Source: Dehalococcoidia bacterium
Lineage (GTDB): Bacteria > Chloroflexota > Dehalococcoidia > Plut-88900
NCBI GenBank assembly: GCA_965197585.1
Contig: OZ240215.1
Coordinates: 2,336,001-2,400,000, forward strand
DNA: 64,000 nt
Reading direction: 5' to 3'
Shown: positions 2,963 through 33,449 of the stretch, piece by piece
Numbering within the stretch: position 1 is the stretch's first letter
Layout of the letters: each line of letters begins with the position of its first letter
Translations under genes and position numbers: made by a program
Notes under the pieces: generated by a model
What the model was told of the DNA's origin: nothing
Database searches by the model: none
Seen by the model: the letters and a program-made list of their open reading frames with translations, nothing else

Positions 2963-3079
2963 CCCCTCTCCCTCAATGAGTCGCAGATGCGCCGAGGCAT
3001 GACCTTTGCACAACCCCGAGGGGAAGAGGCGGTGTCCTATACCCTCTCCCTCGATGGGAGAGGGCTAGGGTGAGGGTGA
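2963..3079. repeat. Composite repeat cluster: REP half, 21-nt micro-insertion (2981-3001), GAGACCTTTGCA-type end, full REP (3042-3079)
   Basis: Aligns to 33717-33749 except for the 21-nt insert. Confidence 0.7.
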
Positions 3080-5714: not shown

Positions 5715-5747
5715 CCGCTCGTGCTGAGGTTCTCGAAGTATGAGCGG
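5715..5747. repeat. REP-like palindrome CCGCTCGTGCTGAG..TCGAAGTATGAGCGG
   Basis: Near-identical copies at 33501-33533 and 33767-33820. Confidence 0.8.
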
Positions 5748-13984: not shown

Positions 13985-14069
13985 AAGTTTGTATAAGTGG
14001 TCAGGGGTGAATTGGAAACCTTGAACTATGGAGCGAGAATATTATACCCCCTTGAGGGCGTCCACACAC

Positions 14070-14430
14070 TAAGACCTTTCCATAAACCCCACCCCCTCCC
14101 CCGTCATTCCGGCCCCCGAGCCGGTAGAAGATGCTGCAAGCGGAACGTCCGCCTCGGGAGGATGCGCCTGTGGCGTGCGCCGAGGCGTGAATCCATCCTT
14201 GGGGTGGGGCCGTTCACCCTGTCGTAGATCCGCCGAGGCGGGAGCACCGTCGAAGGGCCGAGCGGGGGGCGGCCCACCACTGCAAATCCGTCGCGTCCCT
14301 AGAAAGCCACCCCACCCCTTTCTCCCCCGTCATTCCTGCGGAGGCAGGTCGCAGATGCGCCAAGGCGTGAACCCATCCCTCCTGAAGGCGCACCTCCCGC
14401 CGAGCCGGAATCCATCCCCTCTCCCGTAGC
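14070..14430. repeat. REP-like palindrome cluster with nested 21-22-nt micro-insertions
   Basis: 14096-14297 aligns with 33865-33975 once inserts at 14125-14189 and 14222-14242 are removed; another insert at 14349-14369. Confidence 0.75.
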
Positions 14431-14504
14431 CCTCACCTCCGCGAAAACTCACCTTCCGCCTCTACCGCATCAAGCCATGTCCAGCCAAATGTGACACGAA
14501 CCCC

Positions 14505-14534
14505 TTGACCAAAGCAAAACACATGTACTATATT
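14505..14534 (+). promoter_or_regulatory. sigma70-type promoter TTGACC-N18-TATATT with SOS-box-like AAAC-ACAT-GTAC
   Basis: Conserved ahead of all three RNA-like loci. Confidence 0.65.
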
Positions 14535-14539
14535 CACTC

Positions 14540-15120
14540 CCGACTGGCCAGTTACCCACCCCAAGGCCAAGGAGGAACCACAACCCAGGGGGAACACCAT
14601 CCCCGGCCCCCGAGGACTCAACGTCCCAGCCCATCCCAAAGAGCGGCGTTAGCCGCTCCCAGGCTCAAGCGAAAGCCGCCATCTCCTCACCTAAAGGCCC
14701 CGGCTCACCCCCCCCCAACCATCAGGCGATGGAAGGTCCATCGACTCTACGCGGCATGTAGGCTTACGAGACCAGCCTACTCGACGCACCACTCACCCGG
14801 CGCGTTCGAGTCAACGCTATGCGCATAGCACGCGAATATACGGAGCCCTCCATTGCAGGGCTAGGCTAGGGGCCTTCGTGCCCCCGGCATACTCCACCGC
14901 CGTTCCCTTCGGAGGTCCCCACCCAGCGGCGGAAGTGAGTAGGCGCTCCCATCCCTCCGAATGGTCGAGCGCAGGCTTGTGGACGAGACACCCCGCCTCT
15001 CTCGCCCGCCTCAGCAAAGACACGTGGGGTAATCGCAGGCTGGTCTCCCGCCCCTGCCCAAGAGTCTCGGACCTTCCATCGCCTACCCCCCAATAACCAA
15101 ACCAAACCCGGAACCCCAAT
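14540..15120 (+). ncRNA. Putative large structured ncRNA, copy 1 (unknown family)
   Basis: Homologous to 34040-34680 and 63016-63643(-); covarying hairpins; perfect 16-bp inverted repeat 14724-14739 / 15069-15084; no conserved ORF. Confidence 0.7.
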
Positions 15121-15179
15121 CGAAGATCCGCCTCAGGAGGACTTAATAACCCCAAGCCCGTAGCGGTGACGTAGGCAAA

Positions 15180-15893
15180 CTACCTGAACTCCCTTGCCCA
15201 CAGTGCCTGCAGGATGGGCACCTCGTCCAGTTTATCCCCCAAGTCTTCCCAAATTATCCCCGTTGGCCTGTGAAATCCTCCTTCACACGCCACCAACTCC
15301 TCCGGCGTTCCTATGTAGTCCAGGGAAATATCGTGAGATGTCATGGGCAGCTCTTCCGACAAAAGCTGCACAGGATGAACGGTAGTTACTATCGGCGTAC
15401 TCTTAGATATCAGGCCTAGGGTCAAGGCAACAGCGTATTCAAGGTCCGAATACCCGCCGCCCTTGCCCAGCCGAGCCCCTTTCCTGTTCACCGCCACCGA
15501 CCCGCAGACAATCAGGTCAATGCGCTGCATTTCATCAGGGTGCACGAGCCTGCCTAGCTGTGCAGCGCCCTTGATGCTGCTGGCCAACCGGTAGTCGCTG
15601 ATACGGGCCGGGTCCAGTTCAACGAAGCACTTCTCCTGCGTGAGCCGGGGCACGGCCATGTAGACGGTCTTACCCTGCTCCAGGGCGAGCCTTCTCAGGG
15701 GCCTCTGAGGCAGATCGGGGTTCGACTTAATCACCCGGGCGTTCTTCCATATCTCCAACTCGGCAAGCTGAAGATGTGCCCGACCCGAGCCCGTGAAGTT
15801 TGGTATCCGACCCACGGCTCCCGGAAACGCGGCGACACCCGCATCCCTCATCGACTGCCACACATCCTTCCGTATTTCGTCCTTGTCTCTCAT
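15180..15893 (-). CDS. 5-formyltetrahydrofolate cyclo-ligase family (MTHFSD-like)
   Basis: GRIPNF, NPDLPQ, GARLGKGGGYSDLEY, HDISLD. Confidence 0.9.
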   Translation of the reverse strand: MRDKDEIRKDVWQSMRDAGVAAFPGAVGRIPNFTGSGRAHLQLAELEIWKNARVIKSNPDLPQRPLRRLALEQGKTVYMAVPRLTQEKCFVELDPARISDYRLASSIKGAAQLGRLVHPDEMQRIDLIVCGSVAVNRKGARLGKGGGYSDLEYAVALTLGLISKSTPIVTTVHPVQLLSEELPMTSHDISLDYIGTPEELVACEGGFHRPTGIIWEDLGDKLDEVPILQALWAREFR

Positions 15894-15977
15894 TACGTGT
15901 CTCCGCCCAAATTATAGTCTCGTCCCCTCCTGCAAAGCAGGCCCGGTCCACCGTTTCCCTGTGATATATTCGCTGCC

Positions 15978-17036
15978 ATGAGTATCCCCTTTCAGACCAC
16001 CGTAATCGGTAGCCTCCCCAAACCGCCTTGGCTTTATGATTCTTCCGGCTTTTCTACGAAAGTGAAAGGGCTACACGGCAAGGGTGGTACGTGGGCCTAT
16101 TCTGGGGAGGAGCTTCGGGAGGCGCATGACGACGCCGTTAGGCTTGCCATCGGCATGCAGGAGTCAGCCGGGCTTGACGAGATGACCGACGGCGAGCAAA
16201 GACGCGAGTCCTACCTGAGCTACGTGGTGCGAAGGCTAAACGGCTTCGACTACGAGAATTTTGGGGAGAAGTGGGTAAGAGGCGGGAGACGCTTGGCCCA
16301 GGTAGGCCGATGCACCGGCCCCATCACCTGGCCGTGCCCCATGCTGGTCGAAGACCTGCGCTTCACGATTAAACACTCTCGCACACCGGTAAAGGTAACC
16401 CTCCCAGGCCCGATGACCGTCTGCGATTCCATCCTCGACGAATTTTACGGCAACGAAGAGTCCATGGCCATGGCCGTCGCTGATGCACTAAACATGGAGG
16501 CGAAAGCCCTGGCGTTGGAGGGCGCGTCGGTAGTCCAGTTCGACGAGCCCGTCTTCAGCCGATACCCGGATAAGGTTCTTGCCTGGGGTATCGAGGCCCT
16601 GGACAGATCGGCACACGGGGTGAACGCTCAGACCGCAGTGCACGTGTGCTATAGCTACCCCCTTCCCGGAGTCCCCCGCCCCATAGTGCCTAGCTACCCG
16701 ACTATCCTCCCGGCCCTCGAGCACTCTTCAATAAATCAGCTAGCCCTGGAATTCGAAGCGCCGATGCTCTCCGTCGATCTCCTGGCCCTGTGCCCCTCCA
16801 AGACCGTACTCTTCGGGTGCATAACCAACACGTCGGAAGAGGTGGAAGATGCGGATCGAATAGCCAACCGACTCCTGGAAGCGGCCAAGTGCCATCCCGC
16901 TGATCAACTGAAAGTCGCTCCCGACTGCGGTCTCATCCCCGTCTCTGGAGCATCAGCTAGAAGCAAATTGAGGGCGTTGGTGGAAGGAGCTCGGCTAGCA
17001 AGAGCGAGGCTGACTAAGAAGTCTCCCAAGGATTGA
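15978..17036 (+). CDS. Cobalamin-independent methionine synthase II family protein
   Basis: TTVIGSLPKP, TDGEQRR, LPGP, QFDEP, HVC and PDCG Zn ligands. Confidence 0.9.
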   Translation: MSIPFQTTVIGSLPKPPWLYDSSGFSTKVKGLHGKGGTWAYSGEELREAHDDAVRLAIGMQESAGLDEMTDGEQRRESYLSYVVRRLNGFDYENFGEKWVRGGRRLAQVGRCTGPITWPCPMLVEDLRFTIKHSRTPVKVTLPGPMTVCDSILDEFYGNEESMAMAVADALNMEAKALALEGASVVQFDEPVFSRYPDKVLAWGIEALDRSAHGVNAQTAVHVCYSYPLPGVPRPIVPSYPTILPALEHSSINQLALEFEAPMLSVDLLALCPSKTVLFGCITNTSEEVEDADRIANRLLEAAKCHPADQLKVAPDCGLIPVSGASARSKLRALVEGARLARARLTKKSPKD

Positions 17037-17067
17037 AGACATCGGAATCTGGGAGATAACCCGTCAT
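17014..17067 (-). pseudogene. PIN/VapC toxin remnant (internally deleted)
   Basis: Reads MTGYLPDSDV-FNPWETS*: a PIN-like N-terminus joined directly to the typical FNPW C-terminus, just downstream of the antitoxin. Confidence 0.6.
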
Positions 17068-17075
17068 TCGTCGTC

Positions 17076-17362
17076 TTAGTAGTCTATGAACGGAATCGGC
17101 CTGTCTTTCTCTCGGCGACTCGGGATTTCGAGATTTGTCCCACAAGGCATATTGTCAATCAACCATTGTCCAAGAGGTTTGCGCGGCAAGGCGTCACCCT
17201 TGGAAGAAGAATCGTGACCCTGCCATACGCTCTCGGGACAACTACGAACGACTTCCGCGTCCCAATGCGTTGCGGCCCCTCCTCTTCGGAAAGGCGCAGG
17301 ATTTCCGACAGCCGGGCCTTGGCCTCAGTTACAGTCCATACTCTAGGGTCGGCTTGGGTCAA
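17076..17362 (-). pseudogene. Phd/YefM-type antitoxin, frameshifted
   Basis: WTVTEAKARLSEILR..EGPQRI; the alternative frame after VVVP continues as ..RKPLGQWLIDNMP..IPFIDY* to a TAA at 17076. Confidence 0.65.
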
Positions 17363-17419
17363 AACAAGATACTCCTGCGGTCAGCGTACACCTGTTTATT
17401 ATAGGACAGATTGAAGCTG

Positions 17420-18184
17420 CTACAGAATCTGCGACAAGAAAAGCTTCGTCCGGTCGTTCTGCGGGTCTTCGAAGATTTGATGTGGCGTCCCTTCCTCCAC
17501 GATAATCCCCTCGTCGAACATCATCATCCGGTTCGCCACCTCTCGCGCAAAGCCCATTTCGTGGGACACGACAATCATCGTCATCCCCGACTCCGCCAGC
17601 TCCTTCATCACGTCCAGCACTTCCTTGATCATCTCCGGGTCCAGCGCCGACGTCGGCTCGTCGAACAGCATGATGTTCGGCTTCATCGCCAAGGCCCGCG
17701 CTATCGCCACCCGCTGCTGCTGCCCTCCAGATAACTCCTTGGGGTACTTGTCAGCCTGGTCCGGTATCCCGACTCGCTCCAGCAATTCCATCGCGATCTT
17801 CTCCGCCTCCGCCGCTGGTATCTTTCGCACTTTAGTAGGGGCCAGGGTTATGTTCCGCATGATCGTCAAGTGCGGAAACAGGTTGAAAGATTGGAACACC
17901 ATCCCCACGTCCCGGCGAATTGCGTCGATGTTACGCACGTCGTCCGACATCTCTATGCCATCGACGATGATCTGTCCCTTTTGATGCTCCTCCAGCCTGT
18001 TGATGGTGCGGATGAACGTCGACTTTCCTGACCCAGAGGGCCCGAACACCACCACAACCTCCCCTTTCTTGATCGTCGTCGTCACCCCACGTAGCGCGTG
18101 GAACTCCCCGTACCACTTATGCACGTCTCGGCAGATTATTATGTCCTCGGAGCCGTTCTTGCTTTCTCTGGAAGTCATCTCCAA
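17420..18184 (-). CDS. aapP: Amino acid ABC transporter ATP-binding protein
   Basis: [28 protein letters not shown]. Confidence 0.9.
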
Positions 18185-18191
18185 CCCTCGA

Positions 18192-19442
18192 CTATCTCTC
18201 TCCCACGCCTAGGTGCCGTTCGACATGGCGGCTAACGTAAGACATCCCGAATGTGAATATCCAAAATGAGAAGGCCAGGAATACAAACAGCTCTTTTTGG
18301 CTTGATAGGTATTGCGGGTTCCCCTGGATGAACGCCCTGCTGAACTCCAGGATGTCTAGCATCCCTATTATCGTGACCAGTGTCGTGTCCTTGAACAGGG
18401 CGATGAACTGCCCGACAATCGCAGGTATCACGTTGCGGATGGCCTGCGGCAGGGAAATGGCAATCATCGTCTGCCAGCTTGCAAGGCCCAACGCTCTCGC
18501 CGCTTCCGCCTGGCCTGGGTGCAGTGCCTGTAGTCCGCCCCGTATGTTCTCGGCAGTGTAAGCCGCACTGAACAACGTAATGATGATAGCGGCACGCAGT
18601 AGGCTGTTTACAGGAAAGTCCTCGGGGAAGGCCAGGGGCACCAGCACCTGCGACATGAACAACAGCGTTATTAGCGGCACACCCCGAAATACCTCTATGA
18701 ACGCCACGCAGATAACCTTTACCACGGGCAGCTTCGACCGCCGACCCAGCGCCAGCGCTATCCCTATCGGAAAACTGAACACTATACCCACCACCGCAAG
18801 CAGCAGGTTCAGCATCATTCCGCCCCAATAGATTACTGATACAGGCTGAAGCCCGGGTATGCCCGACACCCCTCGGAGCAAAATCAGGATGAGCACAAAA
18901 GCACCTATGCTCAGTAAAACGACGCGATTAGGCGTCCCCAGACGCGTGTACCGACCCAGTGCCCACCCGATTGCCACCGCAGGCACGTTGGCCAGGAGAA
19001 GCAACCGGACGTCCAGGTCCAATCGGTCCAGGTTATATGGCAAGAACGCGATTACCACCAGTGCGGCAGTCACAATGATTGTGATTCGCTTCGTCAGTCC
19101 TCCCCCTGCAGTTGCCCAGGCCAACCCGGCCAGCGCCATAACCAGCATTAGGCTGGCCTGAGGTCTCCAGAAGCAGTTTTGCCCTTCACACGCCGCTTCG
19201 ATGTTGTACGGGCCGATGACGAGCCGCCCCCCTAGGGTCGGTATCACCCCCCACTGTGCATCCAGCAGGATCCAGCCCAGTCCATACCATAGACCTGCAA
19301 GCACAAGGCAAGCCGTAACTACCGTCAACAGCGCGTGGTACCACGCGCTGAAAAGATTTTCGCGCGCCCATCCCATCACCCCTCTATTTAATAGAGGCGG
19401 AGGCAGAGACGGCGGACGACCAAAATTAGAGTTCGTTGCCAT
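18192..19442 (-). CDS. aapM: Amino acid ABC transporter permease
   Basis: [37 protein letters not shown]. Confidence 0.9.
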
Positions 19443-19469
19443 CTCGCTGCTTTATATCACCCGTCTTCT

Positions 19470-20669
19470 TCAAAAAGCTATCCGCCGGTTATAGAAGTTC
19501 CCTATCAGAGAGTAAGTCAAGCTCATGGCGAGATAGGCCGCCATTACCAATATGAAAATCGACACCGCGGGCGCCGTCTGCGTCATGGTCTTGGCCACGT
19601 TCGTGAGTTCGCTGTAGCCAATCGCCGCCGCAAGGCTGCTGTTCTTAGTCAGATTCAAATACTGGCTGATGGTCGGAGGCACAATGACTCGGAGAGCTTG
19701 GGGAAAGGTTACGCTTCTTATAGTCCCCATCCCCGATAGCCCCAAAGACCTTGAAGCCTCCGTCTGCCCCTTCCCCACCGACTGTATCCCCGCCCTGACG
19801 ATCTCTGCAATGAATGCCGCGGTGTACATCACCAGTCCGAGCAGCAAGGCCATCAGTCCACCCGATAGTTCGAAGCCACCCTCTAGCCTCCCAAAAGTCC
19901 CATGCGGAGCCGGCGTCGTAATGGTAAGTGGGAATCCTCCGTTTATCGCTGTGATGATGAACCACCCAACAAGGCCAACCAGAACGGTAGAACCCACACC
20001 TGTCAATAATGGATAAGAAGTCGAACCTGTCTGTTCTTCCCGCCTGGCCATTGCTTTGTGTGCCAGCACGCCCACAGCAATGGCCACAGCCGCAGATACT
20101 AGCCAAATCAGTCCCTGAGCTACCCCGTCCCCGGTTGGAATGGGTACCGATATCCCGGCATTGTTCAAGTACAACCGGTCGGCTATAACGTAACCCTCTC
20201 TTACGGGTGGCAACGCCAGCACTATGTAAAACCAGAAGAAAAGCTGTATCAGAAGCGGCACGTTTCGGAAGAATTCGATATAGACCAGGGCGATTTTCGA
20301 TACCAGCCAGTTGCCGGATAGGCGAGACACGCCAATGAATACCCCAAGCGCCGTCGCCGCAATTACCCCTATCGCCGAGACGAAAATCGTATTCGTCGCC
20401 CCAACGACCAACGCATAGAGGAACGAATCAGACGACTCAAAAGGCAGGAAATGCTGACCTATTGGAGTCTGGTACGCCCGACCCAGAAATCCAAAGCCGA
20501 AAGGTATGTCCCGGTCACTTATCGCGTTCGCTATATTCGCAAAGAACCAGAACACCAGGACAACCACCAGGACCCCTGAAACGATCTGCGCGACCCACTG
20601 GATTACCTGGGCGTGTCGCCAAACGGGAATCCCCTTATAGGTAATGTTAGGTAGCCGTGATGTAATCAA
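19470..20669 (-). CDS. aapQ: Amino acid ABC transporter permease
   Basis: IEFFRNVPLL, AEIVRAGIQSV..GQTEA, YLNLTKNSSLA. Confidence 0.9.
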   Translation of the reverse strand: MITSRLPNITYKGIPVWRHAQVIQWVAQIVSGVLVVVLVFWFFANIANAISDRDIPFGFGFLGRAYQTPIGQHFLPFESSDSFLYALVVGATNTIFVSAIGVIAATALGVFIGVSRLSGNWLVSKIALVYIEFFRNVPLLIQLFFWFYIVLALPPVREGYVIADRLYLNNAGISVPIPTGDGVAQGLIWLVSAAVAIAVGVLAHKAMARREEQTGSTSYPLLTGVGSTVLVGLVGWFIITAINGGFPLTITTPAPHGTFGRLEGGFELSGGLMALLLGLVMYTAAFIAEIVRAGIQSVGKGQTEASRSLGLSGMGTIRSVTFPQALRVIVPPTISQYLNLTKNSSLAAAIGYSELTNVAKTMTQTAPAVSIFILVMAAYLAMSLTYSLIGNFYNRRIAF

Positions 20670-20746
20670 GTTCTGCCAATTAGCGGGCCCGGTGTCGGGC
20701 CGATTCTATTGCAAACCCATGACTTGTGTGCATGCCTAAATACATT

Positions 20747-20779
20747 GAGGGGCGGCCAGCATTCGCTTGGCCGCCCCTC
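20747..20779 (-). terminator. Stable hairpin downstream of the binding-protein gene
   Basis: GAGGGGCGGCCA / TGGCCGCCCCTC 12-bp stem. Confidence 0.6.
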
Positions 20780-20808
20780 TGATTGCTTCACTTAAGTCCA
20801 GTGGGGCG

Positions 20809-21876
20809 CTAACGCAGCGGCGCTGCGTATATCTGACCGCCTTTCGGGCAATCCGTGCACGGAGCGTCGGACCACAGCGCGTTTCGCCCTCCCTCCCTCG
20901 GGAGGTTTATCCCGCCGGGACCCAGGTTGCGTTCGTAGATCTCCCCGTAGTTCCCTACTGCGCCAATCACGTCCTGGGCGACAGTCTGTTCAAGACCCAG
21001 CACGTCCTGTCCGAAGGATCCCTCCAGACCGAACAGCCGGTCAACCTTGGTGTCTCCCGTAGTCGAGGTGGGGACGTCGCTGGAGTCCACTCCGTAGGCC
21101 TCAGAGTAGATCAGGATGCCCATTACGGTCTTCACTATGTCAAACCACTGGTCGTCGCCGTGAGGCACAACAGGCCCGAGGGGCTCTTCCGAGATGGTCT
21201 CAGGAAGAATAGTGTGAGCGTCCCGGTCCTGCAGCGCCGTGCCCAGCGCGGCCAACTGGGAGTTGTCATTCGTAAATGAATCACACTGCCCCTGCTCATA
21301 GGCGGCTAGGACAGCGTCAGTGTCCTCAAAGGTTAGAGGAGTAATATTCAGGTCGTTCTGGTTGGAAAAGTCCTGGAGATTCAGCTCCGTAGTGGTACCC
21401 TGCGTCACGCAAACACTTGTGTCCTTGAGCTCCAGGGCGCTGGATATTCCCAGACTCTTAGGTACCATGAATCCCTGCCCATCGTAGAACATCGTCTGGA
21501 CGTAGTTGCCCCAACTAGCATCACGGGAGGTGGTCCAGGTAACGGTCCTTACAAGCATGTCCACTTCGCCGGACTGGATCGTCGGGCCACGTTCCGCCGC
21601 CGTTATCAGCCGGATCTCGAATGCGTTGGGATCGCCCAGGACCGCCGCCGCTAAGGCCCGGCACAGGTCTATGTCGAATCCAACGTTGTTTCCGGCCTCG
21701 TCAAGGTACCCGTATCCGGGCACGTCGTTCCTGCTCGCGCATATCACATTGCCCCGGTCCTGCACCGCCGCAAGCCTCTCGCCCGACTCCGTCTCCGAGT
21801 CCCCTCCCCCGCAAGCCACAGCGATTGCCAAGAGCAGTGCAAGCCCCAGAATCGCAATAAGTATTCTGTACTTCAT
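20809..21876 (-). CDS. aapJ: Amino acid ABC transporter substrate-binding lipoprotein
   Basis: Lipobox AVAC, GFDIDLCRALAAA, TWTTSRD, ISEEPLGP, VGNYGEIYERNLG. Confidence 0.9.
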   Translation of the reverse strand: MKYRILIAILGLALLLAIAVACGGGDSETESGERLAAVQDRGNVICASRNDVPGYGYLDEAGNNVGFDIDLCRALAAAVLGDPNAFEIRLITAAERGPTIQSGEVDMLVRTVTWTTSRDASWGNYVQTMFYDGQGFMVPKSLGISSALELKDTSVCVTQGTTTELNLQDFSNQNDLNITPLTFEDTDAVLAAYEQGQCDSFTNDNSQLAALGTALQDRDAHTILPETISEEPLGPVVPHGDDQWFDIVKTVMGILIYSEAYGVDSSDVPTSTTGDTKVDRLFGLEGSFGQDVLGLEQTVAQDVIGAVGNYGEIYERNLGPGGINLPREGGRNALWSDAPCTDCPKGGQIYAAPLR

Positions 21877-21911
21877 AGTCGCTATGTTCTCCCTCTCCAG
21901 ATTGGAATCTA

Positions 21912-21997
21912 GCGGAAACCCTAGTTGTGAGGATTATATCAGCGCAGTCTTGTTGCGGAAACCCTAAGTGTGAGAATTATGTCAGTGCAGTCTTATT
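21912..21997 (-). repeat. Two tandem imperfect 43-bp units, each with an extended -10 element
   Basis: Units 21912-21954 and 21955-21997; minus strand reads TGATATAAT and TGACATAAT. Confidence 0.75.
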
Positions 21998-22074
21998 AGG
22001 GAAAGAGTAATTCGTATGAATCGTAGACAGGATACCCTTATCAGGCTAACATGACGCCAACTTGGGGAGACACT

Positions 22075-22251
22075 ATGTCGGAAAAAGAACACGACCATGA
22101 CTCCCACGCCGGTCATGACCACGGCCACGGCCACGACGCCCACACCATACTCCCTTCATATAGTTGGGTTGGTTGCATCCGGGCAACGGTCTCGGCACGG
22201 ATATCTGACTCCCCACTTCGAACGCATAACTGGTTAAACTGTCGGTCTTAA
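22075..22251 (+). pseudogene. His-rich N-terminal fragment or small His-rich peptide
   Basis: RBS GGGGAGA; MSEKEHDHDSHAGHDHGHGHDAH followed by non-conserved-looking sequence. Confidence 0.4.
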
Positions 22252-23075
22252 CCTCCAGACTTGGCGAATATGCCCTTCTTTACAACTGCTGCTACTGCGA
22301 AGAAACCCGTCGCTACCAGTGCCATGGCCGGGCCCGAGGGCAGATCGGCGTAGTAGGAAAGGTAAAGACCCACTATCGCCGATACCGCTCCAATAACCGC
22401 CCCTATGACCATCACCCCCACAAACCGTCTCGCCAGCAAGTACCCAGCCGCCGCAGGAGTGATAAGCATCGCCATCACCAGCACTATACCCGCCGCCTGA
22501 ATCCCGATAACAATCACGAGAGCGAGAAGGGCCAAGAGCACGTATTCTATGAACCTGGTCTTGATGCCCACCACCGCCGCCCCCACCGCATCGAACGTCG
22601 TGTAGACCAGCTGTCGGTGAAACGCGTAAAGACCCACCAGCACAAGGGCCGTCAGGCCCAGCGACACATATACGTCCGTCTGTGACACTCCCAGGACTTG
22701 CCCAAGAAGCAAGTCCTCTATGTCGACGTTGATGTTCGTCGCCCTGGAAAGCATCACCAGGCCCAGCGCAAACATGCCGGCGAAGATTATCCCAATCGAT
22801 GTGTCTTCGCTGATCCCCGTGCGTCGGCTAACTGCTCCCATCAGCAACGCGATCAGGATTCCCGCCGGCACCGCAGCGAAGAATGGGCTGATCCCCAGCA
22901 GGAAGGCCACAACCATAGCGGGTAGCACGGAATGCGCCAGTGCATCCCCCATGAAGGATCGGCCCCTTGTGATGACGTAAGCCCCCAGGATCGGACACAT
23001 CACCCCCACGAGCACCGACACAATCAGTGCCCGCACCATGAAACCGTATTCAAATGGCCCTACGATGTAGTCCAT
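22248..23075 (-). CDS. Zn/Mn ABC transporter permease (ZnuB-like)
   Basis: GDALAHSVLP, LITPAA, DLPSGP. Confidence 0.9.
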   Translation of the reverse strand: MDYIVGPFEYGFMVRALIVSVLVGVMCPILGAYVITRGRSFMGDALAHSVLPAMVVAFLLGISPFFAAVPAGILIALLMGAVSRRTGISEDTSIGIIFAGMFALGLVMLSRATNINVDIEDLLLGQVLGVSQTDVYVSLGLTALVLVGLYAFHRQLVYTTFDAVGAAVVGIKTRFIEYVLLALLALVIVIGIQAAGIVLVMAMLITPAAAGYLLARRFVGVMVIGAVIGAVSAIVGLYLSYYADLPSGPAMALVATGFFAVAAVVKKGIFAKSGG

Positions 23076-23842
23076 TAAGAGCCACCGAGAGTCGGGTCAA
23101 AGTGATTAGCGGCGAACTCTATGCCATGAGAGCCGTAAAGCTCTTCAAGGACCTCGGGCGTAAACGCCACGTCGGGTGGCCCTTGGGCGCACACATGGTG
23201 ATTGATGCAGAGGATCTGGTCGAAGCGTTGGGCCATGTTGGTGAGGTCGTGGGTCGCCAGCAATACTACGCGGCCCTCATCTCGAAGGGTCTGGAGCACC
23301 TCGATAATCCCCTCCTGCGCCCCAACGTCCACCCCGCTGAAAGCCTCGTCCAGCAGGATTATGCTGGCCTCCTGGGCCAGGGCCCGGGCAATGAAGACCC
23401 GCTGGCGCTGCCCTCCGGACAGCTCGGTGACGAGAGACTTGCGCTTGTCCCACAGGTCCACCCGGTCCAGGCATTCCCGCACCATCTCTCGGTCTCCTCT
23501 CCCCGGCTGCCTGAACCACCCGACATTCCAGCCTCGCCCCATGGTCACCACGTCCTGGACAGTGGCGGGAAACTGCCAGTTGATCTTGTCTCGCTGTGGC
23601 ACGTAGGCCACTCCACCATTTTCGTTGGCGGAGCCGTGAAGCTTCACCGTACCTTTTGCAAGGGGCAGCAGGCCGACTATGGCCTCGAACAGGGTGCTCT
23701 TGCCCGCCCCATTGGGCCCCAGGACTCCCATCAGGGTGCCCGGCCCCACGGAGAAGGTGACTCCGGTTAGAGCGGTATGGCCGCCGCGTACCACGGTCAC
23801 GTCTTCCATGCTTATGCCCGGATCATTTACCGTCTTTACCAT
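23075..23842 (-). CDS. Zn/Mn ABC transporter ATPase (ZnuC-like)
   Basis: GPNGAGKSTL, AYVPQR, LSGGQRQRVFIARAL, THDL. Confidence 0.9.
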   Translation of the reverse strand: MVKTVNDPGISMEDVTVVRGGHTALTGVTFSVGPGTLMGVLGPNGAGKSTLFEAIVGLLPLAKGTVKLHGSANENGGVAYVPQRDKINWQFPATVQDVVTMGRGWNVGWFRQPGRGDREMVRECLDRVDLWDKRKSLVTELSGGQRQRVFIARALAQEASIILLDEAFSGVDVGAQEGIIEVLQTLRDEGRVVLLATHDLTNMAQRFDQILCINHHVCAQGPPDVAFTPEVLEELYGSHGIEFAANHFDPTLGGS

Positions 23843-23882
23843 CTGCTGTCCTGCCTTGTCGTTGCCTTTATACTGCCGACGC

Positions 23883-25082
23883 TTACTTGAGAGCCCTGAC
23901 TATGCGCTCGACATTCGTCCGCATCATGTCCAGGTAAGTCTCTGCCCCACTCCCCTCTACCCCTAGAGACCCAGAATAGAGTCGTATGAGCTCCGCCCCC
24001 GACTCCTCGGCGATGGATGTGGCCAGCCGTTCGCTCACTGTCGCCTCTCCGAACACCGCGGGCACGTTGTATTTCTCCACCACTTCAACAAGCTCCGTCA
24101 GGTGCTCCGCCGACGGCTCCGCTTCCGTGGTGGTGGACAGAATAACCCCCACCACTTCGAACCCGTACCTCTCTGCGAAGTATCCGAAGCTGTCGTGGGA
24201 GGTCACAAGGAACCTGCGGGCGTCGGGCACCGATGCCACCTGCTCCTGGGTCCACGCGTCCAGCTCATCAAGCTCGGCGTTGTATTCGGAGGCGTTTGCG
24301 GCGTAGCCATCGGCGCCATCAGGATCGAGGGTCGAGAACTGCTCCGAGATGTAGCCCACTGCCAGCTTCACCCGGAGCGGATCGAACCAGAAGTGCGGGT
24401 CTTCCACACCATGCCCGTGGCCCTCGTGCTCATCCTCTCCTTCGGAAATCAGGTGTTCAATCTCCTCAATGGCTTCATCAGGGGCCATTGCGCCACTGTC
24501 TACCTGATCAATTATTGCCTGGACCATGACGGTCTCTTCTTCCTCCTCGGTAGCAGTGAGCAGACCCTTTATCTCTTCGATAGCGGCATCGGGCGTGAGT
24601 TCCTCTTTTTCCACCTCATGTACAACCTCACCAATGTGCTCAAGAAGCTCCACGTCTTCCTTGTGAGATTCAGCGAACTCAATAGGCTCTATGGCGTCGC
24701 TGAGTTCAATAATGCTGGACGGGTCCCGAGCCGCATTCTCCAGCAGTTCCGTCAGCCAGGACCCTTCAAGACTGAGCCCGACACTGAAGACAATATCGGC
24801 ATCCGCGATCTTAGCAACGTCCCGGGCCCCGGGCTGAAACCCGTGGGGGTCGGCGCCGGTCGGAACAAGGCTGAACACCTCCACTCGGTCACCGCCCACG
24901 TTCTCCGCCCAGTCTGCTATGAAACTGGTAGTAGTGACCACCTGGGCCACTGCGGGCTCTCCCCCACCGTCCGTGCCATCCCCACCCGAGCAACCTGCAA
25001 CCACCGCAATTGCCAATAGGCCCGCCAGGACCAGCGTCAGAGCATTAGCTGACAGATGAAATCTATTGGCATGTAATATCAT
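23883..25082 (-). CDS. Zn/Mn ABC transporter substrate-binding lipoprotein (ZnuA-like)
   Basis: Lipobox VAGC, DPHGF, DPHFWFDP, SHDSFGY. Confidence 0.9.
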   Translation of the reverse strand: MILHANRFHLSANALTLVLAGLLAIAVVAGCSGGDGTDGGGEPAVAQVVTTTSFIADWAENVGGDRVEVFSLVPTGADPHGFQPGARDVAKIADADIVFSVGLSLEGSWLTELLENAARDPSSIIELSDAIEPIEFAESHKEDVELLEHIGEVVHEVEKEELTPDAAIEEIKGLLTATEEEEETVMVQAIIDQVDSGAMAPDEAIEEIEHLISEGEDEHEGHGHGVEDPHFWFDPLRVKLAVGYISEQFSTLDPDGADGYAANASEYNAELDELDAWTQEQVASVPDARRFLVTSHDSFGYFAERYGFEVVGVILSTTTEAEPSAEHLTELVEVVEKYNVPAVFGEATVSERLATSIAEESGAELIRLYSGSLGVEGSGAETYLDMMRTNVERIVRALK

Positions 25083-25155
25083 GTGCAGTGTGTATCACTT
25101 GATATTTAGTATCTATAGACAGTCATTTAAGGGTGATCGACTTAGCTTGTATGAC

Positions 25156-25239
25156 ATAATAAAATCACCTGAAACTCTTGTCAAGTCGTACCAATTACCA
25201 GTGGCAGTCAGGGTAGCAGTAGCAATGAATCATTATTGC
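25156..25239 (-). promoter_or_regulatory. Promoter TTGACA-N17-TATTAT of the metal ABC operon, with an upstream Fur/Zur-like inverted repeat
   Basis: TTGACA 25184-25179 and TATTAT 25161-25156; GCAATGAATCATTATTGC at 25222-25239. Confidence 0.6.
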
Positions 25240-25501
25240 GATTAAATATCAGTAATGCATTAGCTTCTAAAGTTATGGGGCTCAACTACAGGGCATTAAG
25301 AGTTCATTTCTGCACCCCACCCCCGACTCCCCCGCAACCTGATCTGATTCCCTTCCCCGTTCGCGCCGGGGCATGAATGGGCAAATAGGCCCGGGGCTGG
25401 GGTGCAGGGGGGATGGCAATAGGCACAAATTTACCTACGGGCCGAAAGTGTATAATGTGCTAGGAGTGTCCCCTGGTATTTGGCCTGCGAATAATTTAGA
25501 T

Positions 25502-26380
25502 ATGGGCCCTACAACTATCTCCACAAAATCCTCCCCACCCTCCCGACGCCCCCCGTGGCTGAAGGTCCGCCTCAAAACTGGCCCCAACTACCTGGAGCTG
25601 AAGTCGTTGATGCGGAAGATGACCCTCAACACGGTCTGTGAGGAGGCCAACTGCCCCAACATCTTCGAATGCTGGCAGAACCGCACCGCTACTTTCATGA
25701 TCCTCGGTGACGTCTGCACCCGAGCCTGCCGCTTCTGCGCCGTAACCAGCGGCAAGCCCACTTGGAACGACCCCCTGGAGCCCGAGCGCGTCGCCCGAGC
25801 CGTCGAGAAGATGAACCTCTCCCACGTCGTCATTACATCCGTGGCCCGGGACGATCTGCCCGACGGCGGCGCCTCCGCATTCGGCGAGGTGATAAGCAGG
25901 ACCCGGGTCCGCAATCCCAAAACCCGTATCGAGGTGCTTATACCCGACTTTGGCGGCTCCGAGTCCAGCTTGGACACCGTCCTTGCAGCTGGCCCCGATA
26001 TCCTCAATCACAACATCGAGACCGTCGCCCGTCTCCAGAAGGTTGTCCGCTCCCGGGCCACATACGAAAGATCGTTGCAGCTACTGGAGAGGGCCAAGAG
26101 CAAGTCGCCGGATAAGCTGACCAAATCCGGCATGATGTTGGGTGTCGGTGAGGAAGTTGAAGAGGTACTGCAGTCCATGCACGACCTGCATGACGTCGGC
26201 TGCGACATTCTGACCATCGGCCAGTACCTCCGCCCCTCCGAGTCCCACCTCCCCATATCTCGCTACTACACCCCCGAAGAGTTCGCCGAGCTGAAGGAAG
26301 AGGGCAAAAGGATGGGCTTCCGCCACGTCGAGTCCGGCCCATTGGTCCGCAGCTCCTACCACGCTCACGAGCAGGTCTAG
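25502..26380 (+). CDS. lipA: Lipoyl synthase
   Basis: [26 protein letters not shown]. Confidence 0.97.
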
Positions 26381-26396
26381 GTAGTATCCTGTAAGC

Positions 26397-27776
26397 ATGA
26401 AAAGTTATGACATAGTCGTCATTGGTGGGGGCCCGGGGGGCTACGTTGCCGCCATCCGCGGGGCCCAGCTAGGCCTCCGCGCTGCCATAGTCGAAAAGGA
26501 AGAGATCGGGGGCCTATGCCTGAACTGGGGCTGCATACCCAGCAAGGCCCTCCTGCGCAACGCCGAGGTCCTTTCTCTCTTCCACCGAGCCAACGAGTTC
26601 GGCATCTCCTTCGACAACCTCACCGTCGATTATGGCAAGGCCGTCGACCGCAGCCGCCAGGTCGTGAAGAGACTGGTAGGCGGCCTGAAGTCCCTTATGA
26701 AACGCTACGGCATCGATGTTATCCCCGGAATGGCCTCGATTCCTGCCCCCGGCCGCGTATTGGTCGACGGCCAGGAAGAGATCGAAGCCGGAGACATCAT
26801 CGTCGCCACCGGCGCCCTCAACAAAGGTCTACCCCCCCTCCCCGTTGACGGCGAACGTATCATCACTACCCGCGAAGCCCTTGCGATGAAGGAGCTTCCC
26901 GGACGCACGGCCATTGTCGGGGGCGGCGCCGCGGGTGCCGAGTTCGCATATCTCTGGTCGACCTACGGCTGCGAGGTTACCATCATCGAGCTCCTGCCCC
27001 ACCTCCTCCCCAACGAGGATCCTGAGATAAGCGAAACTCTCGAAAAGTCCTTCCAGAAACAGGGCATCAATATCATGACCGGCTCCCGTGTCGAGGCTTC
27101 CGACTTCACCAACGGCGTAGGCACCCTCACCGTATCCACCGGCTCCGACACCTCCCAGGTCCACTGCGATAAAGTCCTCGTTGCCGTAGGGCTGGAGGGC
27201 AACGTAGCAGGTACTGGCCTGCCGGAGCTTGGCATTGAGATGCGCAACGGCTTCATCGCCGTCGACGACGTGATGCGCACCAATCTTTCTAATGTATTCG
27301 CCGTCGGAGACGTCACCGGCGCTCCTCTCCTCGCCCACACGGCCTTCGCCCAGGGCCACATCGCCGTCGAGACCATCGCCGGCCTCCCGACAACTAAGCT
27401 GGTCTCTGAAAACATACCCAAGGCAACCTACTGCCAACCCCAGGTCGCCAGCGTCGGCATTACCGAGGCCCAGGCTCGAGAGCGCGGCCTCGACGTCAAG
27501 GTCGGCAAGTTCCCCTTCATGGCCAGCGGGAAAGCCCTCGGACTGGGTGACAGGGAGGGGTTCGTAAAAGTCGTTGCCGGGGCAGAATACGGCGAGATAC
27601 TTGGAGCCCATATGATCGGGCCGGAGGTTACGGAGCTTCTGGGAGAGGTGTCGGTGGCCCAGGCCCTCGATGCGACGGTCGAGGACATCGGCCTAGCTAT
27701 ACACCCCCACCCCACCCTTTCCGAAGCGCTTAAAGAAGCAGCCCTGGCAGCAATGGGCCAGGTTATTCACATGTAG
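26397..27776 (+). CDS. lpdA: Dihydrolipoyl dehydrogenase (E3)
   Basis: GGGPGGY, CLNWGCIPSK, HPHPTLSE. Confidence 0.97.
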   Translation: MKSYDIVVIGGGPGGYVAAIRGAQLGLRAAIVEKEEIGGLCLNWGCIPSKALLRNAEVLSLFHRANEFGISFDNLTVDYGKAVDRSRQVVKRLVGGLKSLMKRYGIDVIPGMASIPAPGRVLVDGQEEIEAGDIIVATGALNKGLPPLPVDGERIITTREALAMKELPGRTAIVGGGAAGAEFAYLWSTYGCEVTIIELLPHLLPNEDPEISETLEKSFQKQGINIMTGSRVEASDFTNGVGTLTVSTGSDTSQVHCDKVLVAVGLEGNVAGTGLPELGIEMRNGFIAVDDVMRTNLSNVFAVGDVTGAPLLAHTAFAQGHIAVETIAGLPTTKLVSENIPKATYCQPQVASVGITEAQARERGLDVKVGKFPFMASGKALGLGDREGFVKVVAGAEYGEILGAHMIGPEVTELLGEVSVAQALDATVEDIGLAIHPHPTLSEALKEAALAAMGQVIHM

Positions 27777-27794
27777 CGGGACGCGGAGCAGGCC

Positions 27795-28775
27795 ATGAAA
27801 GTACTCAGCAAGCCCATCATGGAAAAATGGCAGTATACGGACCTCCTCAAACAGATGCTGCTCATCCGCAGATTTGAGGAGAAGGCCGCCGAAATGTACA
27901 TGAGAGGCAAAATCGGCGGGTTTCTGCACCTGTACATAGGCGAAGAGGCCATGGCCGTAGGCTCGATTTCTACTCTGAAACCCCAGGACTACATAGTCAG
28001 CCACTACCGGGAGCACGGCCACGCCCTCGCCCGGGGCATCGAGCCCCAACGCATAATGGCCGAGCTCTTCGGTCGTGCCACCGGCACCAGCAAGGGCAAG
28101 GGCGGCTCCATGCACCTGTTCGATGCCGAACGAGGCTTCCTGGGGGGCTACGCCATAGTCGGCGGCATGATGCCCATAGCAGTGGGCCTCGGCCTCGCTG
28201 CCCAGCAGCAGGGCAACGATAGTGTGACCCTCTGCTTCTTCGGCGACGGCGCAGTCAACGAGGGCGAGTTCCACGAGTCCCTCAACCTCGCCGCCCTATG
28301 GAACCTGCCCGTCGTCTTCTTCTGCGAAAACAACGGCTATGGCATGGGCTCCCCCATCTCCGACACCTTCGCCGGCACCGATATCTTCCGCTTCGCTCCC
28401 GTCTACGGCATCAACACCCCCGGCAAGATCGACGGCATGGACGTTTTCGAGGTAATGGAAGCGACCAGGGAAGCCGTCGACCGCGCCCGCAAGGGCCAGG
28501 GGCCCACTTTCATTGAGGCGATCTCCTACCGCTTCCGAGGCCACTCAATGGCCGACCCTATGGTCTACCGCAAGAAGACCGAGGAAGAGGAGTGGCGCAA
28601 CAAGGGTCCCATTGTCCGCATGAAACGCCACATGGAAGAGCTTGGCTTGCTGGACGAAGCCGAAATGAAGGCCTTGGAAGCCGAGATTGACGAAGTTATT
28701 GAGGACGCCGTCCGCTTCGCCGACGAAAGCCCCGTCCTCCCCTACGAATCCATCTCCGACGACGTATACGCCTAG
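27795..28775 (+). CDS. pdhA: Pyruvate dehydrogenase E1 alpha
   Basis: GFLHLYIGEEA, GKGGSMH, GDGA..ENN, YRFRGHSMADP. Confidence 0.95.
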   Translation: MKVLSKPIMEKWQYTDLLKQMLLIRRFEEKAAEMYMRGKIGGFLHLYIGEEAMAVGSISTLKPQDYIVSHYREHGHALARGIEPQRIMAELFGRATGTSKGKGGSMHLFDAERGFLGGYAIVGGMMPIAVGLGLAAQQQGNDSVTLCFFGDGAVNEGEFHESLNLAALWNLPVVFFCENNGYGMGSPISDTFAGTDIFRFAPVYGINTPGKIDGMDVFEVMEATREAVDRARKGQGPTFIEAISYRFRGHSMADPMVYRKKTEEEEWRNKGPIVRMKRHMEELGLLDEAEMKALEAEIDEVIEDAVRFADESPVLPYESISDDVYA

Positions 28776-28785
28776 GCCCACCGAC

Positions 28786-29760
28786 ATGGCATCAATTACC
28801 TACAGGAAAGCCATCAGCCGAGTCCTTAAGGAGACCCTGGACAACGACCCCCGCGCCTTCATGATGGGCGAGGATATCGGCACCTATGAAGGGGCCTACG
28901 CCGTCACCAAGGGTTTTCTGGACAAGTACGGCCGAGAGAGGATCAAGGACACGCCCATATCCGAATCAGTGATAGTGGGCGCGGGTATCGGCGCTGCAAT
29001 GGGAGGTTCCCGCCCCATCGTCGAGCTAATGACCATCAACTTCAGCCTGCTTGCCATCGACCAGATCGTTAACAGCGCCGCCAAGCTCCACTACATGTCC
29101 GGCGGCCAGGTCACCGTGCCACTGGTCATTCGCACCGTCAGCGGTGGTGGCAACCAGCTCGCCGCCTCCCACTCCCAGAGCCTCGAGGGCTGGTACGCCC
29201 ACGTCCCCGGTCTCCGCGTAGTCGCACCCTCCACCCCCGCCGACGCCATAGGCCTTTTCAGGACCGCCTACCGTGACCCGAACACTGTTATGTTCATCGA
29301 GCACTCTCTTCTCTACGGGTCCCGAGGCGAAGTCCCCGAAGACCCCGACTTCACCATCCCCTTCGGCAAGGCTGACATCAAGCGCGATGGCTCGGACGTC
29401 ACCATAATCACCTACTCCCGGATGACCAGGGTCTCCCTGGACGCCGCCGAGAAGCTGGCCGAGGAGGGTATAGAGGCTGAGGTGGTGGACCTCCGCAGCC
29501 TGCGCCCCATGGACACCGAAACGATTATCGAGTCGGTGAAAAAGACCAGCCGGGCCGTCGTCGTCGAGGAAGGTTGGAAGCCCATGGGAATCGGCGCAGA
29601 GGTCTCCGCCCTTATCATGGAAAACGCCCTCGAATACCTCGATGCTCCCGTTCAAAGGGTCGCCTCTCTCGACATTCCCATGCCCTACGCCCGTTCCCTG
29701 GAGCAGGCCGCTATGCCCAGCGAAGCCCGAGTCATCGAGGCTGTCCACCGCCTCTTCTAG
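28786..29760 (+). CDS. pdhB: Pyruvate dehydrogenase E1 beta
   Basis: GEDIG..GAY, DTPISE, HSQSLE, DLRSLRP. Confidence 0.95.
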   Translation: MASITYRKAISRVLKETLDNDPRAFMMGEDIGTYEGAYAVTKGFLDKYGRERIKDTPISESVIVGAGIGAAMGGSRPIVELMTINFSLLAIDQIVNSAAKLHYMSGGQVTVPLVIRTVSGGGNQLAASHSQSLEGWYAHVPGLRVVAPSTPADAIGLFRTAYRDPNTVMFIEHSLLYGSRGEVPEDPDFTIPFGKADIKRDGSDVTIITYSRMTRVSLDAAEKLAEEGIEAEVVDLRSLRPMDTETIIESVKKTSRAVVVEEGWKPMGIGAEVSALIMENALEYLDAPVQRVASLDIPMPYARSLEQAAMPSEARVIEAVHRLF

Positions 29761-29816
29761 CTTTTTGCGCCTTTCTACGTATCAGCAATCGCTTAGATTT
29801 CATAGGAGGCAGACCA

Positions 29817-31037: not shown

Positions 31038-31073
31038 TTTCCATGTCGAGGGCGGTGGTGGGCGTCCTTTTAT

Positions 31074-31118
31074 CCCCTCTCCCTTGACGGGAGAGGGTTA
31101 GGGTGAGGGTGAGGGTGA
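31074..31118. repeat. REP-like palindrome
   Basis: CCCTCTCCC/GGGAGAGGG plus TAGGGTGAGGGTGAGGGTGA. Confidence 0.8.
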
Positions 31119-31126
31119 ATCCACCC

Positions 31127-33396: not shown

Positions 33397-33449
33397 AATC
33401 TTCCCTCCAACTCTGCGTTCGCCAGTACCTGCCCATAATATATCACCCC

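Follow-up and report, generated by a model that had tools for sequence, protein, structure and literature searches.

Candidate hairpin insertion elements of 21-22 nt that nest in one another and in other repeats of a Dehalococcoidia genome

Background

The closest described systems are very short repeats. The small dispersed repeats (SDR1-8) described from Nostoc punctiforme and further Nostocaceae reportedly measure 21-27 nt, insert exactly and nest both within one another and within other kinds of repeat, and no enzyme is known to mobilise them; to our knowledge, the movement of DNA pieces of about 20 nt has stayed unexplained since these repeats were described in 2008. Repetitive extragenic palindromes (REPs) have a candidate enzyme, and many lineages with REP-like repeats lack that enzyme. 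Here we analyse units of 21-22 nt, each made of a short leader and a small hairpin, in a 64,000-nt stretch of the chromosome of a Dehalococcoidia bacterium of the phylum Chloroflexota (G000:C1:2336001-2400000, hereafter the window), which belongs to a single-contig genome, G000, of 3,429,519 bp (3.43 Mb) with 59.3% G+C. An earlier note on the letters of the window had described these units as extremely small non-autonomous mobile elements and had parsed the segment 14125-14189 as three of them, one inside another.

According to Di Nocera et al. (2013, PMC3733652), REPs are stem-loops of 20-40 bp, one end of which carries an unpaired tag, and REPs of type GTAG-23 occur in the Chloroflexi Thermomicrobium roseum and Roseiflexus castenholzii, the units of T. 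roseum lying within small palindromes. REP doublets forming hairpins (REPINs) and the REP-associated tyrosine transposases (RAYTs) are the subject of Bertels and Rainey (2011, PMC3116915). A further system concerns the nuclease SsnA, which, according to Chenal et al. (2025, PMC11893778), binds NTS hairpins as single-stranded DNA and cuts a few nucleotides upstream of them. Literature searches for nested REPs in Chloroflexi and for palindromic repeats of Dehalococcoidia returned nothing relevant, and passages of a 2026 preprint in which SsnA repeats are mentioned contain nothing on such elements.

We hereby present a catalogue of these units in G000, the repeats that carry them, and their distribution among nine genomes of the genus, one for each species (G000-G008), which are closed or near-closed and of which at least five are single contigs.

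Results

Filled sites, empty sites and a triple nest in the window

Every coordinate and sequence given in the earlier note was read directly in the window as it had been described. The segment 14125-14189 (65 nt; + strand, like the units, hosts and empty sites placed in this section) parses as 9+7+22+15+12, that is A(9) C(7) B(22) C(15) A(12), where the letters stand for the leader families defined below: an outer family-A unit of 21 nt (14125-14133 and 14178-14189) encloses a middle family-C unit of 22 nt (14134-14140 and 14163-14177), which in turn encloses an inner family-B unit of 22 nt (14141-14162). The exact 21+22+22 triple nest was confirmed by reading the sequence and by a peel-and-rescan script, which recovered the three layers blind. 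The nest lies within the 3' arm of an NTS/SRM-like hairpin repeat at 14101-14200 (CCGTCATTCCGG...CCGG^AATCCATCC; SRM, Ssn-related motif), whose empty paralogue is at 33870-33902; there, the intact site cgagccgg^aatccatcc at 33883-33902 corresponds to the filled 14117-14200.

The filled and empty pairs of the earlier note, read directly, differ by exactly one unit, or by the nest in the case of 33883-33902. Near the tip of a host hairpin, a 21-nt family-A unit is found at 14222-14242 (ccgttcaccctg^agcaccgtcgaagggccgagcgg; present in G000 and G002), and the empty copy of this host, filled at 14210-14266, was recognised at 33911-33946 by direct reading and by its folds. Another 21-nt family-A unit, at 33779-33799, sits near the tip of the host hairpin ccgctcgtgctg^aggctctcgaagtatgagcgg; the empty copy of this host, filled at 33767-33820, is at 33501-33533 and folds into a long hairpin with the insertion point 2 bases from the apical loop. 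The 21-nt family-A unit at 2981-3001 (ctccctcaatgag^acctttgc) distinguishes the filled 2963-3017 from the empty paralogue 33717-33749. Family B is represented by a 22-nt unit at 34178-34199, placed in the second copy of an RNA element that has no open reading frame (ORF) (gcgaaag^ccgccatc), and the first copy of that element is empty at 14675/14676 (gcgaaag^ccgcc).

Three further units complete this picture. Direct reading and a pattern match place a 21-nt family-A unit at 14349-14369, in the 3' arm of an SRM-like hairpin (gtcattcctgcggaggcagg^aacccatcc), and a 22-nt unit combining an A leader with a B-type hairpin occupies 15120-15141, at the 3' end of the first copy of the RNA element. The copy suspected near 34468 is present, with the correction that it is a degenerate family-C unit at 34467-34488, whose leader reads ATGAAAGT instead of CTGAAAGT and whose intact paralogue is found in the same context at genome position 1397795. 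The pattern TCGNAGATSCGCCNNGGCRKG matches the window four times (2981, 14222, 14349 and 33779) against a mean of 0.00 in 100 dinucleotide shuffles, and the 22-mer core pattern GGAACRTCCGCCNNNGGNGGA, allowing up to two mismatches, three times (14142, 15121 and 34179) against a mean of 0.08 expected.

A genome-wide catalogue and the anatomy of the units

In an unbiased scan of the genome, 11 nt on the left were joined to 11 nt on the right, skipping 10-120 nt, and the joined sequence was sought elsewhere, with tandem-repeat ambiguity removed. Indel lengths peak at 21 nt (105) and 22 nt (60), with 10 each at 19, 20, 25 and 26 nt; coding tandem repeats raise the counts at multiples of three, and some of this noise is present in the lists for 21 nt and 22 nt. 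Loose definitions of the leader or of the hairpin matched the reversed genome as often as the real one and were replaced by a strict catalogue. This catalogue, which carries out the genome scan proposed in the earlier note, contains 198 units in G000 and 1 in the reversed-genome control.

The catalogued units (101 of 21 nt, 93 of 22 nt and 4 of 23 nt) share a common plan, composed of an 8-nt leader, a 5-bp GC-rich stem of the CGCC/GGCG type, a loop of 2-4 nt and one terminal base, which is a purine. Four leader families can be recognised: family A with the leader TCGNAGAY (83 copies), family B with YGGAACRT (36 copies), family C with CTGNAAGT (49 copies) and family D with YYGWAGRC (30 copies).

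The stem is real, as the covariation of its closing pair demonstrates. This pair was left free in the pattern, and it is pairable in 195 of the 198 units, against 93 expected if the two sides were independent (C-G 96, G.T 53, T-A 33, G-C 7, A-T 5, T.G 1). In the middle of the stem, a G stands opposite an A in 63 copies. Both the 53 G.T pairs and the 63 G-A oppositions are tolerable on the leader strand only, which points to a single-stranded form of that strand. The units enter DNA whole and at an exact point.

Nesting

Catalogued units were removed, the genome was rescanned and the procedure was repeated, with the reversed genome as control. The first round gave 192 units, the second 22 new canonical ones and the third a single one, against 1, 0 and 0 in the reversed genome. 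The nest at 14125-14189 is the sole three-layer nest of the genome, and the intermediate stage, with C inside A and without B, is seen for example at genome positions 1295874 and 2472716. There are 23 outer units, of which 17 are broken at the leader/stem junction and 6 in the loop or at the boundary of the 3' arm; some of these 23 nests hold different inner families.

Target sites and host repeats

Insertion after a G, as previously proposed, holds for 163 of the 198 copies; the others follow A (30), T (3) or C (2), so that the preceding base is a purine in 193. The proposed lack of target duplication stands in that no consistent duplication is found, and it is ambiguous at the level of one base, the preceding base being identical to the last base of the unit in 131 of the 198 copies (A 74/83, D 26/30, B 18/36, C 13/49). 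A one-base target duplication as a general rule was rejected, because family C has it in merely 13 of its 49 copies.

Nearly all units are found in repeated DNA (191/198); both 12-nt flanks are unique in the genome for only 7, mostly in diverged repeat copies, and 138 distinct 7+7-nt contexts surround the units. The hosts are (i) hairpins like the NTS/Ssn-related motif (CGTCATTCC...GGAATCYA), matched to the consensus quoted in PMC11893778; (ii) two REP-like hairpins, CCGCTCGTGCTG^AGGCTCTCGAAGTATGAGCGG and CCGCTCACCCTG^AGC...GTCGAAGGGTCGAGCGG; (iii) a G-rich hairpin, CCCTCTCCCTTGACGGG^AGAGGGCTAGGG^TGAGGGTGA, two copies of which flank a small free-standing DUF559 gene; (iv) the ORF-less RNA element of roughly 600 nt; and (v) the units themselves.

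Target preferences depend on the family. Family A mostly enters G^A and family D enters GCTAGGG^TGAGGGT, while family C uses G^TCGAAGG or hairpin loops, and family B uses the leader/stem junction of A-type units or the site GCGAAAG^CCGCC in the RNA element. Relative to the fold, host (i) is entered close to the base of its 3' arm, host (ii) close to its apex and host (iii) three bases inside its 3' arm; a structural rule in which the target is always the loop was rejected on account of these different positions. The 5' junction of family A (G^TCGNAG) has the sequence of the family-C entry point in host (ii) (G^TCGAAGG), which may be a clue.

The subtype of the unit correlates with the type of host. 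All aggcagg^aa sites carry units like TCGCAGATGCGCCAAGGCGTG, and most cgtgctg^agg sites carry the CCGCC/GGCGG form.

SRM/NTS-like hairpin repeats (CGTCATTCC...GGAATCYA) are abundant in G000, in two forms with 60 and 35 copies. In the window they are present at 14101-14124, 14330-14348, 33445-33480, 33590-33625 and 33870-33902, and another example is at G000:C1:2898570-2898600. The hosts at 14101-14200, 14330-14380 and 33870-33902 fit the NTS/SRM design; the micro-elements themselves are without it. The ORF-less RNA element, which hosts units of families B and C, bears a promoter and has two copies of roughly 600 nt in the window, at 14485-15150 and 33985-34600; its 12-mers occur about 50 times in the genome. 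A search of the window against Rfam gave a single match, a tRNA, and nothing else. The flanking genes of the window are ordinary metabolic genes, encoding an alanine racemase-like protein, a 5-formyltetrahydrofolate cyclo-ligase and amidohydrolases; the units therefore sit in intergenic repeat clusters.

Sister species

Copy numbers differ strongly within the genus. The exact pattern of family A is found 37 times in G000, 29 in G001, 37 in G002, 64 in G003, 39 in G004, 33 in G005 and 10 in G007, and 0 times in G006 and G008. Family B counts are 29, 8, 16, 17, 0 and 28 in G000 to G005, 1 in G007 and 0 in both G006 and G008, and those of family C are 32, 62, 21, 57, 42 and 22 in G000 to G005, 16 in G007 and 1 each in G006 and G008. 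Seven species (G000-G005 and G007) are thus element-rich and two (G006 and G008) nearly element-free. Seven of the nine genus members carry the exact family-A pattern, as against 0 of 32 genomes from other genera of the class, the reversed-pattern control being 0 everywhere.

For the comparison of orthologous sites, the syntenic 80 kb of G002, G005 and G003, with about 91-94% identity to the window over long blocks, were used, and indels were listed. Presence/absence in sister genomes, a check suggested in the earlier note, takes the form of exact unit-sized differences. The host hairpin at 5715-5740 is empty in G000 and G002 and in G005 holds a 21-nt family-A unit at the insertion point 5727. 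At 15128, a 22-nt B unit (GGAACATCCGCCTTTGGAGGGT) is nested in the unit at 15120 in G002 only and is absent in G000; conversely, the B unit at 34179 of G000 is missing from its G002 orthologue. The hairpin at 14222 carries an A unit in G000 and G002, and in G005 it is empty at that point and has a C unit 5 nt downstream. The unit at 14349 is apparently absent in G002, within a poorly aligned stretch, and was left out of the polymorphism count.

The triple nest also stands at the orthologous positions in G002 and G005, altered by point changes only. Its presence in three independently assembled species implies that it is older than these species and contradicts an assembly artefact, which had been named as a possible refutation. 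Contigs from public runs (4 of 24 runs) on 14060-34059 are short and break at repeats, and joints such as that of 14120 to 33907 are cross-repeat joins.

In place of the whole 1.2-kb repeat cluster that the window has at 13985-15208, between the racemase-like and cyclo-ligase genes, G003 has only about 130 bp and G001 about 430 bp, so that such clusters build up and vanish between species.

Outside the genus, a one-genome-per-species scan (596 Gb) gave at least 123 matching loci, some tens of which are expected by chance alone according to our own estimate. The sequence TCGAAGATCCGCCGTGGCGGG occurs at least 12 times and its close variants at least 5 times each, mostly in metagenome-assembled genomes of Planctomycetota, with five matches in a single Phycisphaerae genome of this kind. 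The recurrence of near-identical 21-mers indicates that related families exist in other phyla. Some of them (TCGAAGATCCGCCGTGGCGGG and variants), in Planctomycetota and a few other phyla, form inverted pairs meeting at CTTCGAG|TCGAAG, which suggests related element families in a REPIN-like arrangement. Among viral contigs there were 7 matches, six of which look like chance matches in coding sequence. A virus-like contig of 36.6 kb from IMG/VR (L178) has a family-A-type unit in a CCCTCTCC...GGGG^AGAGGG hairpin (ccctctcc...gggg^agaggg), with the same insertion point as in host (iii).

Orientation relative to GC skew

The cumulative GC skew of G000 has its minimum at about 2.66 Mb and its maximum at about 1.08 Mb. 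In regions of negative skew, 118 units are on the + strand and 13 on the - strand; in regions of positive skew, 32 are on the - strand and 9 on the + strand. The leader strand is on the C-rich strand for 150 of the 172 units outside flat-skew regions, and long ORFs are split about evenly between strands in every 200-kb bin.

The host repeats are oriented by the skew in the same way; the TCGAAGTATGAGCGG hairpin, for example, is found 51 times in one orientation and once in the other under negative skew, and 17 times against once under positive skew. The families compared were the micro-elements, the two REP-like hairpins, the G-rich hairpin, the SRM-like hairpins and the ORF-less RNA element. 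All tested repeat families are one-sided relative to the skew, mostly at about 85-98% outside flat regions, with a weaker effect for the RNA element and one short motif.

Most of the chromosome shows a strong skew, but about 1.1 Mb (from about 2.95 Mb through 0 to 0.6 Mb) are nearly flat, which suggests past inversions or an assembly problem in that part.

Search for the mobilising enzyme

The earlier note had compared the units with IS200/IS605 or RAYT HUH chemistry and had proposed a search for Y1/RAYT transposases. The Pfam family Y1_Tnp (PF01797) has no match in G000 or in any other of the 9 genus genomes, in a search that was positive in 6 of 14 control reference genomes. Reverse transcriptases (RVT_1) are absent from G000 and five others and occur only in G003, G006 and G008 among the nine, a distribution that does not follow that of the elements.

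Three nuclease genes of G000 were candidates as well. The first encodes a Vsr-like DUF559 protein of 126 aa (G000:C1:2892674-2893137, L001) and lies between two direct copies of CACCCTCACCCTAGCCCTCTCCCCTCAAGGGAGAGGGGAC, a repeat family that hosts units of families A and D. Two element-rich genomes, G001 and G004, lack DUF559, and the element-poor G006 has it; this gene thus does not track the elements. The second encodes an 88-aa GIY-YIG protein and is directly behind an intact tRNA-Asn(GTT), outside the window (G000:C1:3308322-3308710; L003 1406-1800); it is followed by a duplicated 3' part of the tRNA-Asn, where a 15-nt CCGCC/GGCGG palindrome similar to the stem of the units has taken the place of six anticodon-arm bases. 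Close copies of this gene (98-100% identical) are found only in G000 and G005. Weak matches to other GIY-YIG genes occur in four further genomes; G001, G006 and G007 gave no match, and the element-rich G001 and G007 none even at E 0.001. The third, a 114-aa Ssn-like GIY-YIG gene, adjoins one SRM-like repeat; with this query it was not found in G001, G002, G006 and G007, and it is present in G008.

The ORF-less RNA element was also considered as a partner and rejected, since the other eight genus members all have it, the element-poor G006 and G008 among them.

Discussion

How the units may move

The proposal of a very small non-autonomous mobile unit fits what was found: the units are discrete, non-coding and insertion-like, they occur in at least six unrelated hosts and in themselves, and they show presence/absence at orthologous sites as well as lineage-specific copy numbers. 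We therefore read them as non-autonomous hairpin insertion elements of 21-22 nt, consisting of leader and stem and moved in trans, and give this reading a probability of about 65%. The factor behind the movement is not a Pfam-recognisable Y1/HUH transposase or reverse transcriptase. A single-strand mechanism is plausible, considering that the G.T and G.A oppositions are tolerated on one strand only and that the orientation is biased.

As the data show, a whole unit is inserted at an exact point, which nearly always follows a purine, mostly G, and is nearly always located in another selfish repeat able to form a hairpin. Units also enter their own kind, preferring the leader/stem junction or the loop, and nests up to three deep result; the copy numbers of sister species have expanded differently. 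According to the model, movement would go through the single-stranded form of one particular strand, as the stem mismatches on the leader strand and the orientation relative to the skew suggest, and would be catalysed in trans by an enzyme. A filled host composite could then multiply as its host is amplified, or through conversion among the copies of that host.

Several observations weigh against non-autonomous elements moved in trans. No mobilising enzyme was found among Y1_Tnp, RVT_1, DUF559 and the two GIY-YIG candidates. Folded as DNA, single units reach -2.1 to -3.6 kcal/mol with z-scores equal to those of shuffles, so that thermodynamics alone does not reveal a hairpin; because this folding is weak, the evidence for the stem was taken from covariation. 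Since all host repeats share the strand bias, that of the units may come from hosts that always receive them in the same direction, or else a single-strand rule may govern the community of repeats as a whole. The correlation of subtype with host implies that many copies are co-amplified composites and that independent insertions are far fewer than 198. Every clean orthologous polymorphism has filled paralogues elsewhere in the genome, hence conversion between host repeat copies could produce these polymorphisms in the absence of fresh transposition, and each of them may be either a gain or a precise loss. The locus of the triple nest, being old, shows no sign of current activity.

A more specific version of the same idea is a single-strand micro-transposon that does without a HUH transposase and is moved by an unrecognised enzyme, or by the replication machinery using hairpin oligonucleotides released by a nuclease. 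Such a "parasite of parasites" would home to selfish hairpins and to its own leader/stem junction. We put this version forward tentatively; the near-identical 21-mers of Planctomycetota and other phyla suggest that the same machinery may be widespread.

Alternative explanations

Passive spread is the alternative that survives best, and we regard it as possible, if doubtful. It supposes a few ancient primary insertions, after which composites multiplied with their host repeat and conversion or recombination toggled sites between filled and empty, the unit itself no longer moving. The association between subtype and host, the repeated contexts of 191 of the 198 units, the filled paralogues of each orthologous polymorphism and the conservation of the triple nest across three species are all in its favour. 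However, neither the primary insertions, which hit at least six unrelated hosts, nor the 23 nests, whose inner families are not always the same, can arise by passive spread. The orthologous hairpin at 14222 also speaks against it, one species having a C unit 5 nt from the point where two others have an A unit, and expansions specific to a family, such as B with 0 copies in G004 and 28-29 in G000 and G005, or C with 62 in G001, are hard to obtain from host amplification alone.

The nucleases described above lead to a second alternative, which seems unlikely to us. A hairpin-specific single-strand nuclease, either an Ssn-type GIY-YIG or a DUF559 protein, would nick beside hairpins; released or copied oligonucleotides bearing a unit would be built into the nascent strand at the replication fork or serve as repair templates, and units would accumulate at the hairpin repeats most prone to the nuclease. 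Several hosts match the NTS/SRM design, which SsnA binds and cuts as single-stranded DNA according to PMC11893778; moreover, the 114-aa GIY-YIG gene is flanked by an SRM-like repeat, the DUF559 gene is between two copies of another host repeat, the dead tRNA piece behind the 88-aa gene lodged at tRNA-Asn holds a palindrome like the stem of the units, and a single replication-linked orientation is common to all repeat families. On the other hand, the distribution of the elements in the genus is not matched by that of any of the three nuclease genes. SsnA is reported in the same paper to cut upstream of the NTS, and the units occupy a different position in SRM hosts, the 3' arm. GIY-YIG nucleases form no covalent intermediate, so a joining activity must be assumed.

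Quite improbable, in our judgement, is the REP/RAYT or IS200/IS605 mechanism, in which a Y1 HUH transposase binds the single-stranded hairpin, cuts at the 5' edge of the leader and immediately 3' of the stem, and joins the released piece to the 3' side of a short target with no duplication. GTAG-tagged REPs are reported in Chloroflexi, inside small palindromes in Thermomicrobium roseum (PMC3733652), and according to the same paper deletion can remove REPtrons. The anatomy of the units is REP-like, with a short unpaired tag and then a GC-rich stem, target duplication is not consistent, and the strand bias is present. GTAG at leader positions 3-6 occurs in 39 of the 198 units (A 19/83, D 20/30, B 0/36, C 0/49), the others having GAAG, GCAG, GAAC, GAAA or GTAA. 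Against this mechanism stands first the lack of PF01797 matches in all nine genomes, by a search that recognised the family in 6 of 14 controls. Orthologous sites differ between species, which implies activity or loss later than their split. The catalogue contains 25 neighbouring pairs of units within 100 nt, all 25 in the same orientation and none an inverted doublet. Elements of the IS608 type use the lagging-strand template, and the leader strand of the units is the C-rich strand, which by the usual rule would not be that template.

That there was no insertion at all, the units having been produced by the assembly or being conserved functional motifs, either protein-binding sites or RNA hairpins, that arose in place, is hardly credible, for although the units are short and GC-rich and singly fold no better than shuffles, their boundaries are exact, empty counterparts differ by precisely one unit, nests resolve exactly, the triple nest is kept in independent assemblies of other species, and 198 copies face 1 in the control.

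Why these units matter

The genus provides an unusually clean test bed for the movement of very short DNA, since it offers nine species, seven rich in units of four related families and two nearly empty, together with exact insertion points, a clear self-target and a strong strand bias. The usual suspects are missing: none of the nine genomes has the Y1 transposase, and six of them, including G000, lack reverse transcriptase. In addition, other repeats and a multi-copy structured RNA change shape when a unit is inserted, and the resulting exact indels of 21-22 nt confound alignment and strain typing.

Comparison with known systems

The units can be set beside five known kinds of element. Miniature inverted-repeat transposable elements have terminal inverted repeats and a target duplication of fixed length and usually exceed 50 bp, unlike the units, which are 21-23 nt long with asymmetric ends and no consistent duplication. 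Insertion that depends on a hairpin, is strand-specific and takes place 3' of a short target with no duplication recalls the IS200/IS605 elements; however, these need two different subterminal hairpins and TnpA, and here there is one hairpin, a length of 21-22 nt and no TnpA.

NTS/Ssn motifs, as presented in PMC11893778, are oriented hairpin repeats with a conserved unpaired 5' part and are recognised as single-stranded DNA, and in G000 repeats of this kind act as hosts. The micro-elements differ from them in that they are without the CGTCATTCC...GGAATC design (an 8-9-bp palindrome), are inserted into such repeats, and are not tracked by the Ssn-like gene.

With the REPs the units share a stem-loop with an unpaired tag, a high copy number and differences between species. 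They depart from the REP/REPIN-RAYT system in the lack of a RAYT in 9 of 9 genomes, in their size, which is at the lower limit, and in nesting at a fixed internal point. Among the REPs, GTAG-23 is the type with which family D (CCGTAGGC...) would be compared.

The likeness to the SDRs is in units of 21-23 nt, exact insertions with empty counterparts and 23 nests; unlike the SDRs, which occur in heterocyst-forming cyanobacteria, the units belong to a GC-rich genome of the Chloroflexota (Dehalococcoidia) and so fall outside the SDRs by taxon. The units are among the smallest mobile-looking DNA known, and they work like SDRs and REPs, with established membership in neither. Four leader families on one stem design, a target 3' of a purine, the leader/stem junction as the preferred self-target and an orientation that follows GC skew are the features that set them apart from the SDRs.

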